NCBI GenBank assembly: GCA_028279805.1
Contig: JANQMZ010000007.1
Coordinates: 240,001-272,000, forward strand
Reading direction: 5' to 3'
DNA: 32,000 bases
From: an archaeon
Lineage (GTDB): Archaea > Iainarchaeota > Iainarchaeia > Iainarchaeales > JANQMZ01
The notes below the pieces were generated by a model. The model searched no databases, was not told the DNA's origin, and saw only the letters and a list, made by a program, of their open reading frames with translations. The position numbers and the translations under genes were made by a program. Below, piece by piece: positions 3,637 to 13,505 of this stretch (positions within the stretch are counted from its first letter, which is position 1; each line of letters starts with the position of its first letter).

Positions 3637-4587
3637 TTAAAGCTTAAAAACCATGTTTTTTAAAGTCAGATTATGAATTACAATCCAGTTAAGCAATGTA
3701 ACAAAAGCTGCAAAAATTATTGCACTCACTCCTGTCAAAAACTCGGGAATGTTTAAAGCCAGAACAAATGCAATAAAAACGAACTGCAAAAAGAAACCAA
3801 AAAAAGCATTCAATCCGAAAATTCTTAAAAATTCGGCTTTAAATTTTTTGAATTCAAACAAATAATAAAACAACAAAAACAAAAAAACTGAAACTCCGGC
3901 TGAAAAAACAACATAGCTTTCTGAAACCGTTAACCTTGCCAAAGGAATAAAAAAACTTAAAACAATTCCCAAACCTGTTAACAAAAAAGCAAGAGAAAAA
4001 GTTTTCAGAACAAATTTTTTTTTCTCAGCAAAAAAATTTCCGACAATTAAACCTATTACAACAATAAATGTCCATGTTAAAATTCCGGGCAGCCCGCCTT
4101 CCCCAAAATTTACAGCCAAACTGTGAAAAAAAGGGTGTTGCAACAGAAAAAAATGAAGCAATATTAAAAAAAAAGCAAAAACAAATTTGAACAAATTATT
4201 TTTTGAACTGACAAAGAATGCAATAAAATAGGAAGCTCCAATTGCTTCCAAAACACCCCAGACCAACTGCAATGAATTGCTTCTTACCAGATTGTCTCCA
4301 AGCATTCCGATTAAAATAAGCAGAACAGAACGCTTCAAAACATGTTTTGTTATTTTTTCATTTGACTGTTTTAATATTTTTTTTCTTTTTTGCATTGAAA
4401 AATGAAGTGAAACTCCTACAATAAACAAAAAAAATGGAAAAATTAAATCAACAAAAGTTATTCCTCCGATACCATCAGGAAAATGTTTTAACGCAAAAGG
4501 AATCAATGAAAAAAAAGCCAAAGTGTTTACAAAAATCATTGATAAAACGGAAAAACCTCGAAAAATATCAACAAAATCATAACGCAT
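3637..4587 (-). CDS. Polytopic membrane protein, HGSNAT/DUF1624-DUF5009-like acyltransferase family
   Basis: N-terminal motif MRYDFVDIFRGFSVLSMIFVN followed by about 9 hydrophobic segments. I prefer the start at M24 (4587) because the 4656 start abuts tRNA-Arg. Confidence 0.5.
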   Translation of the reverse strand: MRYDFVDIFRGFSVLSMIFVNTLAFFSLIPFALKHFPDGIGGITFVDLIFPFFLFIVGVSLHFSMQKRKKILKQSNEKITKHVLKRSVLLILIGMLGDNLVRSNSLQLVWGVLEAIGASYFIAFFVSSKNNLFKFVFAFFLILLHFFLLQHPFFHSLAVNFGEGGLPGILTWTFIVVIGLIVGNFFAEKKKFVLKTFSLAFLLTGLGIVLSFFIPLARLTVSESYVVFSAGVSVFLFLLFYYLFEFKKFKAEFLRIFGLNAFFGFFLQFVFIAFVLALNIPEFLTGVSAIIFAAFVTLLNWIVIHNLTLKNMVFKL

Positions 4588-4664
4588 GTAAACCAGCCAA
4601 ATATGCAAACAAAGTAAACCAGTGCTGCCGAAGGCGCACGTTCCCACCCGAAACATCGGGCTAG

Positions 4665-4736
4665 CGGACCCGGAGGGATTCGAACCCTCAACCCACAGCT
4701 TAGAAGGCTGTTGCGCTTCCGTTGCGCCACGGGCCC
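4665..4736 (-). tRNA. tRNA-Arg (anticodon UCU)
   Basis: The reverse complement folds as a 72-nt cloverleaf: acceptor GGGCCCG/CGGGTCC, anticodon stem ACAGC/GCTGT, loop CTTCTAA, T-arm GAGGG-TTCGAAT-CCCTC, discriminator G. No CCA is encoded. Confidence 0.92.
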
Positions 4737-4829
4737 TTTTTTAGCTATTAATTGTGGTTTGATAGATTTTAAACCTTTTTTAATTAAATTCAAAAACCTA
4801 TTTAAAGCATTAAACAATAATAATTAGCA

Positions 4830-5681
4830 ATGATTCAAAGAAACTGGATTTTAATAGGAGTAATTGTAATTGCTCTTGGCTGGATTTTTTTAAATTTTGA
4901 CACTGGCCTGCCTTTTGATACGCAGGAAAATAATGAGGCAAATGTTTTGAATGAACCTGTTTTGAATTCTGAAACTGTTGAAACAAGTGTTAATTTTTTA
5001 CAAAATAGTGTGACATTTGCAGATGAAAAAGATTTGGTGAGTACCATTTTTATGAGCCGCAAGGTTGACACGGAAAATGAAGACGAACCGTTTGTTTTTC
5101 AGGGAAGAGAGTATCAGATTGTTATAAACAAAAGCAGCAAAGTTCTGGAAGTAACTTATAATGATTTGGAAAATAAAAAAATGCGTTTTTCTGTGCCTTA
5201 TGAAAATGAAGCTTTTTCAAAAAATTCTGTAAGTTTTTCAAATGCGTTTGATGAAAAAGAAGCTGAATTTAAATATTTTGTTTTTGAAAATGAAAATCTT
5301 GTTTATTTTTTTTTAACCGCACAATCTTTTCCTTTGCAGGGGCAAAATTTTTTAAGATTTGAGGGAACTGATACAGACGGAGACGGAGCTGTAGATATAG
5401 ATTATTATGCAAGAGATGCAGAAGCTTTTGGTTTTGATTCAGGTGATTCAATGCCTCTGGTCGGGCACTTTGTTCTTTCAAACAAAGGAAAAGATGTGAA
5501 AGTTTTTGTTAACACTTTAAATGATGCTTTAATTGTTCCTGATGAAACTTTTTCCTATTATTTGGGTCCGGTAATGTTTGACGGGAAATTTTTTAATGAA
5601 ACAGGAAAAACAGCTGTTGATTCAGCGGGAAACCAGTTTCAGCTTGACGAAAAAAAAGTTTTAGTTGTTCTTGCTCCTTAA
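4830..5681 (+). CDS. Hypothetical secreted or membrane-anchored protein with a DxDxDG-type motif
   Basis: N-terminal hydrophobic helix (WILIGVIVIALGWIFL), acidic ectodomain, and DTDGDGAVDIDYY, which resembles calcium-binding loops. No family recognised. Confidence 0.55.
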   Translation: MIQRNWILIGVIVIALGWIFLNFDTGLPFDTQENNEANVLNEPVLNSETVETSVNFLQNSVTFADEKDLVSTIFMSRKVDTENEDEPFVFQGREYQIVINKSSKVLEVTYNDLENKKMRFSVPYENEAFSKNSVSFSNAFDEKEAEFKYFVFENENLVYFFLTAQSFPLQGQNFLRFEGTDTDGDGAVDIDYYARDAEAFGFDSGDSMPLVGHFVLSNKGKDVKVFVNTLNDALIVPDETFSYYLGPVMFDGKFFNETGKTAVDSAGNQFQLDEKKVLVVLAP

Positions 5682-10261: not shown

Positions 10262-10786
10262 TTAACCTTTGGTTATTTCAACAATTTTCACTGAAAAAAT
10301 TAAAGTTTTTCCGGCTAAAAAATGATTAAAATCAACTTTAACAGTTTGATTGTCAACTTCAACAATTTTTCCCCTTTGACCATTTAAAACAAGTTCAGTT
10401 CCGATTTCCGGAACAATTCCCTGGTCTTCAAACTGGCTTAATGGAACTCCAACAATTAAAGAAGAATCAGTTTCACCATAACCGTCTTTCGGAGCAATAA
10501 CCAAATCTTTTTCCTCATCAAGCTTTAATCCAATAACACCATTATCAAAACCTTTAATCATTTGACCTGCTCCCGCCTTAAACTCTAAAGGGTCACGCCC
10601 TTCACTTGAATCAAAAACAGAACCGTCTTCCAGTTTTCCGGTATAATGAACTTTAATAGTGTCACCAGATTCAACAATTTTACTCATATCAACATCAACT
10701 CCTTTATCCGTTTCAACATTACCCTGATTTGAAGTGCATCCCAACACCAACAAAAACAATCCTAAAATTAAAACAATTTTTTTCAT
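10262..10786 (-). CDS. FKBP-type peptidyl-prolyl isomerase with IF (insert-in-flap) domain and a lipoprotein-type signal
   Basis: VHYTGKLEDGSVFDSS...EFKAGAGQMIKGFD and DFNHFLAGKTL flank an inserted domain. MKKIVLILGLFLLVLGC carries a lipobox (LGC). I prefer M23 (10786) as the start because the longer ORF runs toward the tRNA trailer. Confidence 0.8.
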   Translation of the reverse strand: MKKIVLILGLFLLVLGCTSNQGNVETDKGVDVDMSKIVESGDTIKVHYTGKLEDGSVFDSSEGRDPLEFKAGAGQMIKGFDNGVIGLKLDEEKDLVIAPKDGYGETDSSLIVGVPLSQFEDQGIVPEIGTELVLNGQRGKIVEVDNQTVKVDFNHFLAGKTLIFSVKIVEITKG

Positions 10787-10814
10787 AAAATGAAATAACT
10801 TACAAAACATTTTT

Positions 10815-10860
10815 AAGTCCCAGTGAAACTGGGACGTTCGCAGCCGGAACACCGGCTAAG
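10815..10860. repeat. 46-nt two-hairpin module, copy A (directly abuts the 3' end of tRNA-Ser-GGA)
   Basis: AAGTCCCAGTGAAACTGGGACGTTCGCAGCCGGAACACCGGCTAAG. Hairpins are GTCCCAG/CTGGGAC (10817-10835) and AGCCGG-AACA-CCGGCT (10842-10857). Confidence 0.7.
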
Positions 10861-10944
10861 CGCAGGGGACGAGATTTGAACTCGCGCGTTCCGAAGAACA
10901 CAAGCTTTCCAGGCTTGCGCGTTAAACCACTCCGCCACCCCTGC
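10861..10944 (-). tRNA. tRNA-Ser (anticodon GGA), class II with long variable arm
   Basis: 84-nt cloverleaf on the reverse strand: acceptor GCAGGGG/CCCCTGC, anticodon stem CAAGC/GCTTG, loop CTGGAAA, variable arm TGTTCTTCGGAACGC, T-arm GCGAG-TTCAAAT-CTCGT. No CCA is encoded. Confidence 0.92.
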
Positions 10945-11080
10945 AAACCGATTGCATAATTGATTTTATGTGCTATCTTTAAATAGCATCTGAAGCGTTC
11001 CGTCCGGACGCAACCGCGCTCTCAAGAGCGCAAGTGCTATCGCAGATAGCACGCGGATTGTCCCTACGCAATGGGACAAG
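10945..11080 (-). other. 136-nt structured spacer between the two tRNA-Ser genes (five hairpins)
   Basis: Stems: 10971-10988 (TGCTAT/ATAGCA), 10995-11011 (GCGTTC/GGACGC), 11016-11031 (GCGCTC/GAGCGC), 11034-11052 (GTGCTATC/GATAGCAC), 11058-11079 (TTGTCCC/GGGACAA). Confidence 0.55.
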
Positions 11081-11164
11081 CGCAGAGAGAGAGATTCGAA
11101 CTCCCGCGTTCCGAAGAACACCAGGTCTCAAGCCTGGCGCGTTAAACCACTCCGCCATCTCTGC
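11081..11164 (-). tRNA. tRNA-Ser (anticodon UGA), class II with long variable arm
   Basis: 84-nt cloverleaf: acceptor GCAGAGA/TCTCTGC, anticodon stem CCAGG/CCTGG, loop CTTGAGA, the same variable arm TGTTCTTCGGAACGC, T-arm GGGAG-TTCGAAT-CTCTC. Confidence 0.92.
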
Positions 11165-11275
11165 ATCGCCTGTGTTCAGGCGGCAAACTTGCTGCTTTCA
11201 GCAGCAAATCCGAAGCTTTGCTTCGGAAGTCCCAATGCAATTGGGACGTTCTCACGCGGAACACCGCGTAAATGG
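11165..11275 (-). other. Structured putative 5' leader of the tRNA-Ser operon (five hairpins, includes module copy B)
   Basis: Stems: 11167-11182 (CGCCTG-TGTT-CAGGCG), 11189-11207 (TTGCTGC/GCAGCAA), 11209-11227 (TCCGAAGC/GCTTCGGA), 11229-11247 (GTCCCAAT/ATTGGGAC), 11254-11269 (ACGCGG-AACA-CCGCGT). AT-rich TATA-like sequence lies just upstream on the minus strand (about 11300-11325). Confidence 0.5.
11227..11272. repeat. 46-nt two-hairpin module, copy B
   Basis: AAGTCCCAATGCAATTGGGACGTTCTCACGCGGAACACCGCGTAAA. It is collinear with copy A, and every stem difference is compensated on the partner strand. Confidence 0.7.
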
Positions 11276-11331
11276 ACAATTATTGCCCTAATGCTTACCA
11301 ATTAAAGAATTTAAGTGTTTTAAATACTTCT

Positions 11332-12444
11332 ATGAAAAAGGATTTTCTTGTTTTAGAGGATAAACTGGAGCGAATTACTGATGAACTGGATACTGATTTG
11401 TCAAAATATATTACTCCGGTTAATGCTATAAGTGAAGAGAAAAAGTTTTTTGAAGCATTGGAAAAAGGCGAGGAATATAATCCTGTTTTTGAATATTTGC
11501 CAAAAAACCCGCTTTATTCTCATTTGAAAATGAGCCCTGAATATAAGGAAAAATTAACAGAATTAACTTTGATTCAGACAGGGGAAAAAGGTGTGTCAAA
11601 ATTGTTAGGTAAAAAAAAACAGGATTTGATTAAAAAAATGGAATTTATCAGAATGATTGGAACTGAAAAGTTCGGGGAACAATCAGTCGAATTTTTTGGA
11701 AAGCCAAGCAAAAAACTTGTAAAAGATTCAATTAAAGAATTGAAAAAAAAAGTTAAACCGGATGAAAAAAACATTTCAGCTGAAAAAATGGTTTCAGAAT
11801 TAAAAAATTTTTTAAAAAAGAAAAAAATTAAGTTTAATGTTTTAATTGAGGAAAAAATGTCAGCAGATGCAGCTGTTTTAAATTCTGTTCACGAATTAAG
11901 AATCAGAAAAGATGCAATGTTTTCAGAATTGGATGTTAAAAGATTAGAAATTCATGAAATTGAAACACATATTTACAGGCATTTGAATGGTCACAGGCAA
12001 CCGTATAAACTTTTTTTAACAGGCACTGACAGAAACTGGTTGATTACAGAGGAAGGGTTGGCTGTTGCAAATGAAAAACTGTTTAATTGTTGCAGTTCTG
12101 CCAGGTTAAAAAAATATGCAGGCAGGGTTTTGTCCGTTCATAAAAGTCTGAATAATTCTTTTTATGATGTTTTTAAATATTTGGAAAAATTTTTTGAACC
12201 GGAACAGGCTTTTAGAATTGCTTTGCGTTCAAAAAGAGGAACTTGTATTACTGAAAATCCGGGAGGTTATACAAAAGATTATTTTTATTCAGAAGGAATT
12301 AAAAGAATTAATAAATTTTTAAAAAAAGGAAACATTGAAGACTTGTATTATGGTAAAATTTCAATTGAAGATATTAATGAATTTAAATCAATTCCCGAAC
12401 TTGTTAAACCAAAATATTTACCTGATTACAAAAAGGTTTTGTAA
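11332..12444 (+). CDS. DUF1704 / MATCAP-like metallocarboxypeptidase family (QEGLA-motif protein)
   Basis: HEIETH (HExxxH) at LEIHEIETHIYRH, followed by ITEEGLAVANE (a QEGLA-type motif); about 370 aa. I prefer the ATG at 11332 because the 11272 start lies inside the hairpin module. Confidence 0.65.
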   Translation: MKKDFLVLEDKLERITDELDTDLSKYITPVNAISEEKKFFEALEKGEEYNPVFEYLPKNPLYSHLKMSPEYKEKLTELTLIQTGEKGVSKLLGKKKQDLIKKMEFIRMIGTEKFGEQSVEFFGKPSKKLVKDSIKELKKKVKPDEKNISAEKMVSELKNFLKKKKIKFNVLIEEKMSADAAVLNSVHELRIRKDAMFSELDVKRLEIHEIETHIYRHLNGHRQPYKLFLTGTDRNWLITEEGLAVANEKLFNCCSSARLKKYAGRVLSVHKSLNNSFYDVFKYLEKFFEPEQAFRIALRSKRGTCITENPGGYTKDYFYSEGIKRINKFLKKGNIEDLYYGKISIEDINEFKSIPELVKPKYLPDYKKVL

Positions 12445-12590
12445 TAATGCGAACGAAGTAAGCAAGTGTCACTGAAAGTGGCACGCCGATTGCGCCTAGG
12501 CAATGGCGCTGGGACAGAAAGTAATAAATAATCCAAAATCCTACTTTTTCCGTAAGTTTTGCCTTACTTATAGCTGAAAAAGGGGATTTT

Positions 12591-13505
12591 ATGGCGGATA
12601 TAACTGGACAATTGCTTCAAACAGGAAGCGAGTTTTTAGACGCTTTAAACCCTTTATGGGTTATTATTGTTACTGTTATTGTTGCCAAGCTTTTTAATCT
12701 TCTGGCAAACAAGTTCATGGCAAGAGTTTCAAAAAATATTAAGGTTCATGAAACACAGTTTTTGCTTGCTATTCGATTTATTTCTGCTTTAATTTATTTT
12801 ACGGGTTTTATTGTTGCAGGTTCAATGATTCCTGAACTGCAGTCAGTGGCTGTTTCAATTTTTGCATCCGCAGGTATTCTTGCAATTGTTGTCGGTTTTG
12901 CTGCACAGCAAACTTTGTCTAATTTTATTTCCGGAATTTTTATAGGAATGTTTCAGCCTTTCAGGGTTGGGGACAGGATTACAATTGAAAAAGAATATGG
13001 CGTTGTTGAGGACATTACTTTAAGGCATACTGTTATCAGAACAAGGGATAATAGAAGAGTGGTTGTTCCAAATTCTCAGATTAATGACAGCATGATTATT
13101 AATTATACTATTAATGATGCAAAAATTTTACGGGAAGTTGATGTAACCATAAGTTATGATTCTGATATTGATTTTGCCAAAAAAATACTGGAAAAAGAAA
13201 TCAAAAAACTGCCTGATTTTCACGGAATAATTAAAAAATCTGAAATAATGGGAGAAAAAGATGTTTTAATCAGAGTTGTTGACCTGGGAGAATTCGGAAT
13301 AAAATTAAGATGTTATTTTTGGGCTCCCGACTGGGCTACTTCAAGAAGAATGAAACAAAAACTTCTTGAAAATGCTAAAAAAGCTTTTGACAGGGAAGGA
13401 GTTGAAATTCCTTATCCTTACAGAACAATTGTTTACAAAAAAGATTTAAAAAAAACAAGAAAAGCGCCGCAGAAAAAAAGAAAAACAAAATCTAAAAAAA
13501 ATTAG
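12591..13505 (+). CDS. mscS: Small-conductance mechanosensitive channel (MscS family)
   Basis: Three N-terminal TM helices, the pore-helix motif QQTLSNFISGIFIGMFQPFRVGDRI, and the beta-domain GVVEDITLRHTVIRTRDNRRVVVPNSQI. AGGGGA Shine-Dalgarno precedes the ATG. Confidence 0.85.
   Translation: MADITGQLLQTGSEFLDALNPLWVIIVTVIVAKLFNLLANKFMARVSKNIKVHETQFLLAIRFISALIYFTGFIVAGSMIPELQSVAVSIFASAGILAIVVGFAAQQTLSNFISGIFIGMFQPFRVGDRITIEKEYGVVEDITLRHTVIRTRDNRRVVVPNSQINDSMIINYTINDAKILREVDVTISYDSDIDFAKKILEKEIKKLPDFHGIIKKSEIMGEKDVLIRVVDLGEFGIKLRCYFWAPDWATSRRMKQKLLENAKKAFDREGVEIPYPYRTIVYKKDLKKTRKAPQKKRKTKSKKN

Follow-up and report, generated by a model that had tools for sequence, protein, structure and literature searches.

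A short double-hairpin repeat at tRNA gene boundaries of a DPANN archaeon

The genomes of DPANN archaea are extremely compact and are thought to be poor in repeats. A GC-rich double-hairpin module is described here that lies directly beside the tRNA genes of such an archaeon, within a 32,000-nt stretch of contig JANQMZ010000007.1 (assembly GCA_028279805.1, positions 240,001 to 272,000; henceforth the window). Its closest analogues, judged by structural likeness, are (i) the double-hairpin elements and GC clusters of mitochondrial genomes, which are regarded as mobile (e.g., PMC2800124, PMC4478555), and (ii) the bacterial REP/REPIN elements, with REP palindromes being defined by an unpaired GTAG or CGTC tag at one end (PMC3733652). 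The module has not been described before and belongs to the general kind of short palindromic repeat elements, without a named family to which it could be assigned.

The host is a DPANN archaeon related to Diapherotrites/Iainarchaeota (~34 % GC in the window), and the hairpins therefore have to be read against TATA boxes, oligo-T termination and processing by RNase P and RNase Z. Our preferred interpretation, held at a probability of roughly 45 %, is that of a lineage-specific double-hairpin repeat which may have spread by insertion or duplication at tRNA boundaries, is constrained as a folded single strand, and would be co-transcribed with the tRNAs and removed by RNase P and RNase Z.

Double-hairpin modules beside three tRNA genes

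The module unit comprises 41 nt and consists of a 6-bp hairpin with a UGUU loop (hairpin 2), a G-N-R-A-A-C linker and a 7–8-bp hairpin with a U-N-C loop (hairpin 1). Four copies (A, B, C and Arg; Table 1) are present in the window, next to three tRNA genes at two tRNA loci. An earlier interpretation made without database searches (the sequence-only reading) had recognized a 46-nt module duplicated as A and B. These two copies indeed align without gaps (repeat D2, 82 % identity), all six of their stem differences are compensated, and they form direct repeats 412 bp apart. The count of two has to be raised to four, since the copy at tRNA-Arg and the nature of two listed hairpins (11167–11182 and 11189–11207), which together represent an inverted fourth copy, had been overlooked. 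A thirteenth hairpin and the archaeal identity of the host had escaped notice as well.

Alignment of all four copies requires only a single one-base gap. All 55 stem cells are paired and 11 of the 14 base pairs have changed on both sides, values attained by none of 500 column shuffles, while slid partners pair only to 23–42 %; conservation of pairing by compensatory change, as initially proposed from copies A and B, is thus upheld. Identity between copies amounts to 77–92 % for the unpaired UGUU, G-N-R-A-A-C and U-N-C bases and drops to 36–54 % for the stems of the more distant copies. Variable stems combined with constant unpaired bases point towards the folded single strand as the conserved state; a double-stranded DNA operator would show the opposite pattern. 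The further step from conserved pairing to structured RNA, also taken in the sequence-only reading, is not established: since the palindromes fold on both strands, one copy is inverted and template switching likewise compensates stems, the selected state could be RNA or single-stranded DNA.

When run without filters, a covariance model derived from these copies (R1) retrieves all four with 57–69 bits, the next best score in the window being 16.5 bits (hairpin H7). The pattern TGTT-N8-GAACGT is found exactly three times in the 32 kb, each time inside a module. To extend the view on the host genome, Logan contigs of the same sample were added, covering ~70 kb in total (~38 kb beyond the window). 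The added part contains no further tRNA, module copy or GC-rich hairpin cluster, so that the covariance search, which had been suggested at the outset, yields the four copies and no more in ~70 kb. Among ~60 intergenic regions in this sequence, the modules are confined to the two tRNA loci, the only ones present. Three options had been offered originally for the hairpins, and this distribution (four copies at two tRNA loci), with sites in leader, spacer and trailer, agrees best with that of a hairpin repeat targeting tRNA flanks.

Three of the four modules are part of a larger cluster. The 460 nt around the two tRNA-Ser genes, a tandem pair confirmed by ARAGORN and Rfam, have a GC content of 0.53 versus ~0.33 in the flanks, in accordance with the impression gained by eye. 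Trailer, spacer and leader together account for 308 non-tRNA nt, and 200 of these fall within 12 perfect hairpins (minimum stem length 6 bp). This hairpin density, initially proposed for comparison with shuffled sequence, greatly exceeds that of 1000 dinucleotide-preserving shuffles of the same segments (mean 0.4 ± 0.7, maximum 4). Folding of the whole region deviates from shuffles by z = −6.4 on the minus and z = −7.4 on the plus strand, and no comparable hairpin cluster occurs elsewhere in the window. The Watson-Crick-perfect hairpins are worth −4 to −12 kcal/mol each; stems are nearly all of Watson-Crick type and fold equally well on both strands. The twelve hairpins originally listed as perfect are so in eleven cases, the exception being that at 10995–11011 (H9).

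Known RNA families do not account for the module. Only the three tRNAs of the window reach the Rfam gathering threshold and no family matches the module, as had been surmised; at E ≤ 10, the interval 10700–11400 yields only sub-threshold chance matches, e.g., sX4 with 22 bits (threshold 70), overlapping the tRNAs. C/D or H/ACA sRNAs were rejected on account of lacking box motifs and Rfam matches, a self-cleaving ribozyme on account of lacking Rfam matches, and a CRISPR array since the hairpin sequences differ, their period is irregular and tRNAs are interspersed. A bulge-helix-bulge motif (two opposite 3-nt bulges with a 4-bp helix between them) was likewise dismissed, as the helices are uninterrupted and the leader–trailer pairing contains 1x1 mismatches only.

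Placement at tRNA ends and hairpin elements of related archaea

Hairpin 2 of modules A, Arg and C faces the tRNA at a distance of 2–3 nt from the mature end, and module copies are present in both orientations. Modules B and C form an inverted doublet around the central hairpin H3 (11167–11269, 103 nt), located between an AT-rich divergent promoter region and tRNA-Ser(UGA). The nearest TATA-like box upstream of tRNA-Ser(UGA) ends 135 nt before its +1. Without the 103-nt doublet this distance would be 32 nt, as compared to 29 and 33 nt for the other two tRNAs. Since removal of the doublet restores the usual promoter spacing, insertion of B-H3-C upstream of tRNA-Ser(UGA) is suggested. The position of the modules fits the transcribed spacer of a tRNA operon, TATA-like boxes at the cluster being restricted to the H10 loop and to the sequence upstream of 11296; TATTTAAAG in the H10 loop is the likely promoter of tRNA-Ser(GGA).

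Modules A and Arg occupy the whole gap from the tRNA to the TATA-like box of the next gene on the same strand, which is 0–3 nt away, and this gene appears to be leaderless in both cases. Excision of module A would join CUU, the trinucleotide opening the trailers of both tRNA-Ser genes, to UUAAAAAUGUUUUG, a T-run like those right behind the tRNAs of relatives; such an oligo-T run directly after the tRNA is absent in the window. The modules do not resemble terminators, as no run of at least 4–5 U stands immediately behind the hairpins or at the tRNA 3' ends: the sequence after module A is UUAAAAAUGUUUUG and that after module Arg UGGUUUACUUUG, and B and C border on further hairpins. With T|element|TT, T|element|TG and AT|element|AT, the two sides of an element have at most 1–2 nt in common, which is meaningless at 34 % GC. 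The trailer of tRNA-Ser(UGA) contains no full module according to the R1 scan.

Homologous tRNA-Ser flanks in relatives had been named as a possible touchstone. The outcome is mixed: the sequence of the module is absent there, but a different hairpin element occupies the same position. The syntenic tRNA-Ser(UGA) of relatives, upstream of an opposite-strand DUF1704 gene, lacks the modules of the window. Three related contigs (L021, L001 and L020) carry an AT-rich element of ~48 nt, located 2–4 nt past the tRNA-Ser discriminator, in which GUAAGUUGCCCAAAAGAAA follows a polypyrimidine/polypurine hairpin. The two tRNA-Ser genes of L021 are trailed by identical copies, and in L020 the element is arranged in tandem (42-nt period, up to five units). 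The same element is found inside canonical-position introns, i.e., in tRNA-Ser(GGA) of L001 and tRNA-Ser(UGA) of L020; these intron copies carry runs of 4–6 U, which are expected to terminate archaeal transcription. A comparable arrangement is observed in the Iainarchaeum contig L023 (25 % GC; 12575–12785, minus strand), where tRNA-Leu(CAA) has a 44-nt intron and the motif CCUGCACUAAAA is common to this intron and to two tandem 52-nt hairpin units in the trailer. Hairpin repeats in removable parts of tRNA transcripts thus recur in this clade, with no detectable homology between the module of the window and these elements of the relatives. The locus at 5275–5456 of L001 (minus strand) is a class II tRNA with intron, syntenic with tRNA-Ser(UGA) of the window and missed by default ARAGORN; with introns allowed, the program reports tRNA-Ala(UGC), whereas by eye the gene is tRNA-Ser(UGA)-like with an intron of ~97 nt.

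Table 1 Features of the tRNA loci in the window and sites of the hairpin element in related contigs. TATA-like boxes were assigned by reading the sequence; R1 scores refer to the covariance model of the four modules
Feature	Position	Strand	Description
Module A	10817-10857	minus	Begins 3 nt past tRNA-Ser(GGA) discriminator; hairpin 2 10842-10857 (6 bp, UGUU loop), GCGAAC linker 10836-10841, hairpin 1 10817-10835 (8 bp, UUC loop); R1 69.3 bits
Module B	11229-11269	minus	Promoter-distal end of tRNA-Ser(UGA) leader; hairpin 2 11254-11269 (UGUU loop), GAGAAC linker 11248-11253, hairpin 1 11229-11247; R1 64.5 bits
Module C	11167-11207	plus	Inverted; hairpin-2 end 2 nt from tRNA-Ser(UGA) 5' end; hairpin 2 11167-11182 (TGTT loop), GCAAAC linker 11183-11188, hairpin 1 11189-11207 (TTC loop); repeat I1; R1 63.6 bits
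Module Arg	4622-4661	minus	Begins 3 nt past tRNA-Arg discriminator; hairpin 2 4646-4661 (UGUU loop), GGGAAC linker 4640-4645, hairpin 1 4622-4639 (7 bp, one bulged A); same sequence in independent Logan contig L005; R1 57.6 bits
tRNA-Ser(GGA)	10860-10944	minus	Discriminator G at 10861; ARAGORN; Rfam RF00005, 60.8 bits
tRNA-Ser(UGA)	11080-11164	minus	ARAGORN, Rfam
tRNA-Arg(UCU)	4664-4736	minus	ARAGORN, Rfam; trailer opens with CU, directly followed by module copy
H3	11209-11227		UCCGAAGC-AAA-GCUUCGGA; centre of inverted doublet B-H3-C
H6-H10	10971-11079		Five solo hairpins; spacer between the two tRNA-Ser genes
H6	11058-11079		GUCCC/GGGAC stem shared with hairpin 1 of A and B
H7	11034-11052		Weak likeness to hairpin 1; R1 16.5 bits
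H8	11016-11031		Solo spacer hairpin
H9	10995-11011		Imperfect; G-T wobble on plus strand, C-A mismatch on minus strand
H10	10971-10988		Arms common to H7 (9-nt perfect inverted repeat I10); loop holds TATA-like TATTTAAAG
H13 (thirteenth hairpin)	11274-11288	minus	GGGCAA-UAA-UUGUCC; G-U pair on minus strand only; -4.4 vs -0.8 kcal/mol
TATA-like box, tRNA-Ser unit	11300-11307	minus	CTTTAATT
TATA-like box, tRNA-Arg	4766-4773		Ends 29 nt before tRNA +1
TATA-like box, tRNA-Ser(GGA)	10977-10985		In H10 loop; ends 33 nt before tRNA +1
FKBP-type lipoprotein gene	10262-10786	minus	Pfam scan of window genes
DUF1704 gene	11332-12444	plus	Matches Pfam MATCAP; Pfam scan of window genes
Element of relatives, L021	2735-2786, 7086-7137	minus	
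Element of relatives, L001	385-445, 520-578, 5365-5420	minus	
Element of relatives, L020	6130-6396, 6465-6526	minus	

Several further observations concern the hairpins themselves. Hairpin 2 and the linker of modules A and B (10836–10851, 11248–11263) share GGUGUUC...GAACG with the variable arm GGUGUUCUUCGGAACGC of tRNA-Ser (arms compared at ~10886–10903 and ~11106–11123), and the spacer holds CGGAACGC, which is identical to the 3' side of this arm (repeat D3). An alternative UGUUY:GAACG pairing is possible in all three minus-strand modules, in the minus sense only. Pairing of the UGUU loop with the GAAC linker as a pseudoknot was discarded, as it is sterically impossible for a tetraloop. G-U pairs were too few and too inconsistent to assign the functional strand: those of H13 and of hairpin 2 in module Arg speak for the minus strand, that of H9 for the plus strand. 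The 85-aa open reading frame at 11034–11291 was rejected as coding, since it spans hairpins and a tRNA.

None of the three tRNAs in the window encodes CCA or contains an intron according to ARAGORN. Besides the FKBP and DUF1704 genes, the neighbourhood comprises HIT, MscS, GMP synthase, SUF and H+-pyrophosphatase genes (Pfam), and the extension loci encode an A-type ATP synthase as well as a diphthine-ammonia ligase. Proteins homologous to that of the DUF1704 gene carry the labels Candidatus Diapherotrites or Iainarchaeum; apart from the self match, identity reaches only 48 %, hence no alignable orthologous spacer is available. The mechanically called starts of two open reading frames (3637–4656, minus; 11272–12444, plus) are spurious. 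The ATG at 4656 falls into the hairpin-2 loop of module Arg, and translation likely begins at ATG 4587 in the same frame; for the DUF1704 gene, the likely start is 11332. A TATA-like box is located ~26 nt upstream of both re-started genes as well as of the FKBP gene (ATG 10786), suggesting leaderless mRNAs. Two contigs of the independent Logan assembly of the same sample (L005 and SRR20820740_17411) both stop inside tRNA-Arg at ~4691–4707, as calculated from their coordinates. The minimum of the cumulative GC skew (~11000) coincides with the hairpin cluster (10800–11300), where minus-strand genes on the left give way to plus-strand genes on the right, and probably reflects a coding-strand effect. 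This coincidence with the change of gene orientation, the high GC content of the region and the absence of orc1/cdc6 genes from ~70 kb led to rejection of a replication origin at this site.

Interpretation and rival explanations

For transcription and processing of the double-hairpin repeat, as well as for its insertion history and a role as protective or insulating cap, we infer the following course. The elements would have multiplied by insertion or duplication at the tRNA-gene boundaries of an AT-rich DPANN archaeon and, together with solo and degenerate hairpins, would now fill leaders, inter-tRNA spacer and trailers. Their stems may drift as long as pairing holds, whereas loop and linker bases stay constant, which suggests that some factor reads these bases. 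Transcribed within the pre-tRNA, the elements would be cut off by RNase P and RNase Z, and such removal could account for a tolerance limited to tRNA flanks. Any benefit for the host would be secondary and is proposed with greater caution: stable hairpins capping both ends of the precursor might slow down exonucleases, and the modules would keep each tRNA apart from the following gene, the promoter of which starts 0–3 nt past modules A and Arg. Presence of both orientations, spacing at the doublet, the T-run arising upon removal of module A and the module-free relatives are consistent with insertion or duplication.

Several points weigh against this interpretation. Every copy is perfectly paired at 20–50 % divergence, and selection in place, i.e., a host function, fits this better than the decay of old insertions. 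Clear target-site duplications or terminal inverted repeats are lacking at the module copies, and the Pfam scan of window genes and the Pfam labels on the extension loci (~70 kb together) revealed neither a transposase nor another gene for mobilisation. The evidence base consists of four copies and three tRNAs from a single metagenome-assembled genome without close relative; as ~70 kb are covered and the genome comprises at least 853 kb, neither the copy total nor the restriction to tRNA loci is established. The strict module pattern CGRTGTTYCGSSTGNGAACGTSC has no match in viral contigs and six in the genome collection, all in unrelated bacteria and at about chance expectation, and the tRNA-anchored pattern GTTCRAATC-N19-23-TGTT-N5-TG-N-GAACGT has seven matches in metagenomes, none with hairpins. 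Neither scan thus provided a copy in other genomes or metagenomes, and spread beyond this lineage is unproven.

The main rival explanation is a dedicated host RNA motif. An RNA-binding protein would recognize the UGUU loop and the GNRAAC linker, as exposed by the two helices, and thereby define or protect the 3' end of the pre-tRNA, or insulate the adjacent leaderless gene from read-through, with leader copies protecting the 5' end. Modules A and Arg indeed share one site, 3 nt past the discriminator, in tRNA sense and 0–3 nt ahead of the next TATA-like box. The full pairing of every copy and the far better conservation of loop and linker bases as compared to stems would be expected from such a motif, as would the lack of the oligo-T run known from relatives, which themselves have a hairpin element at exactly this trailer position. 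However, module C is inverted and hence contributes AACA and GAA loops and a GUUUGC linker to the pre-tRNA; module B resides in the leader rather than in a trailer, the tRNA-Ser(UGA) trailer is devoid of a full module, and the sequence is kept in no relative. Moreover, archaeal termination depends on oligo-U tracts together with aCPSF1 (PMC8716108, PMC7515710), and the modules lack such tracts. A dedicated host motif is considered less probable than the repeat interpretation. A purely mutational origin of the compensation may also be envisaged: template switching (quasi-palindrome correction) at heavily transcribed tRNA loci could make palindromes and keep them perfect as a by-product of DNA mutation, with no function of their own. 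This process is known to create and maintain hairpins with compensated stems (PMC8794818), and stems that are almost exclusively of Watson-Crick type and fold equally on either strand agree with it. The low share of G-U pairs in the hairpins (~2 of 102 pairs versus 5 of ~71 in the three tRNAs) points in the same direction, though this difference is not statistically significant. Template switching accounts neither for the highest conservation being found at unpaired loop and linker bases nor for the recurrence of a defined 41-nt two-hairpin unit at an unlinked tRNA locus 6 kb away, and is considered improbable.

Pairing at a larger scale is implied by a third model, in which leader module C and trailer module A form a processing stem that brackets the two-tRNA precursor in the manner of rRNA-operon stems and serves a double-strand-specific or bulge-helix-bulge endonuclease. 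Inverted repeat I1 (10824–10861 with 11163–11200; 38 nt, 71 % complementary) provides the basis for it, the minimum-free-energy fold of the 491-nt precursor pairs the regions of modules A and C, and 19 of 24 positions pair by hand over the hairpin-2 and linker parts. The centroid structure retains the local hairpins, however, the hairpin-1 arms of A and C are not mutually complementary, bulge-helix-bulge geometry (3-nt bulges 4 bp apart) is missing, and tRNA-Arg possesses a trailer module without complementary leader, rendering this model still less probable than template switching. Recognition as double-stranded DNA, be it as operator, as recombination site (att/dif-like) or as remnant of tRNA-targeted integration, is very improbable: tRNA genes often serve as integration sites and A and B are direct repeats, yet the palindrome arms, which would be the contact surface for a dimeric DNA-binding protein, are the least conserved part, and neither a partial tRNA duplication, an integrase or mobile-element gene nearby (Pfam scans of the window) nor a match to viral contigs was found.

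If the repeat interpretation is correct, the modules represent a new archaeal class of short structured repeats with a niche set by tRNA processing instead of intergenic space in general, and the four-copy covariance model is ready for searches of DPANN genomes. From the conservation of the UGUU loop and the GNRAAC linker, a factor that specifically binds or cleaves the module is predicted. If the modules are host elements instead, they would exemplify 3'-end formation or tRNA insulation without oligo-U tracts in an archaeon. One may further speculate, at a level below that of the host motif, that small hairpin elements of this clade home to tRNA genes, i.e., to leaders, trailers and, in sister lineages, the intron position of the anticodon loop, and owe their persistence to removal from the mature tRNA by RNase P, RNase Z and the splicing endonuclease. 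The GC-rich family of the window would then be one such lineage, and the elements a living source of archaeal tRNA introns and structured spacers. As the same element resides in the trailer of one relative and in the tRNA intron of another, an origin of tRNA introns from such elements is testable by comparative genomics.

Comparison with known repeat systems

The AT-rich element in tRNA-Ser trailers and introns of related archaea resembles the module with respect to its niche 2–4 nt past the discriminator, unit length (~42–52 nt), occurrence of tandem copies and the succession of a hairpin and a conserved single-stranded segment. It differs by its AT-richness and polypyrimidine/polypurine hairpin, and by its presence also in tRNA introns, which are lacking in the tRNAs of the window.

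REP, BIME and REPIN elements of bacteria, which are mobilised by RAYT transposases, are likewise short extragenic palindromes that occur singly or as inverted doublets, display compensated stem variation, and have been proposed to exert side-effects on transcript stability and termination. The module differs from them by its two-hairpin unit, its archaeal host, and its restriction to tRNA flanks in the 70 kb covered, in which no RAYT gene was seen. The halves of B-H3-C are 49 % identical and hence do not form a single long REPIN-type hairpin. With respect to the REP tags, GTAG is absent from the modules and CGTC is present in A and B only, with its GTC inside the stem; the respective position reads CGTG in module Arg and CTTG in module C.

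Transcribed spacers of tRNA operons, e.g., the 3' external spacer of the bacterial glyW-cysT-leuZ operon, share the location in leader, spacer or trailer and presumably the removal by RNase P and RNase Z. Known ones are not built of a repeated, covarying two-hairpin unit common to unlinked tRNA loci.

Double-hairpin elements, GC clusters and repetitive hairpin-forming elements of fungal, sponge and placozoan mitochondrial DNA are also short GC-rich units of one or two hairpins in AT-rich, compact genomes, and occur in several diverged copies with conserved structure at non-coding sites including those beside tRNA genes. They belong to eukaryotic organelles, whereas the module is part of a free archaeal chromosome; the likeness is one of structure, and a relation in sequence is not expected. 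What sets the module apart from these mitochondrial elements is that every copy seen is located at a tRNA gene and that conservation is highest at the unpaired bases.

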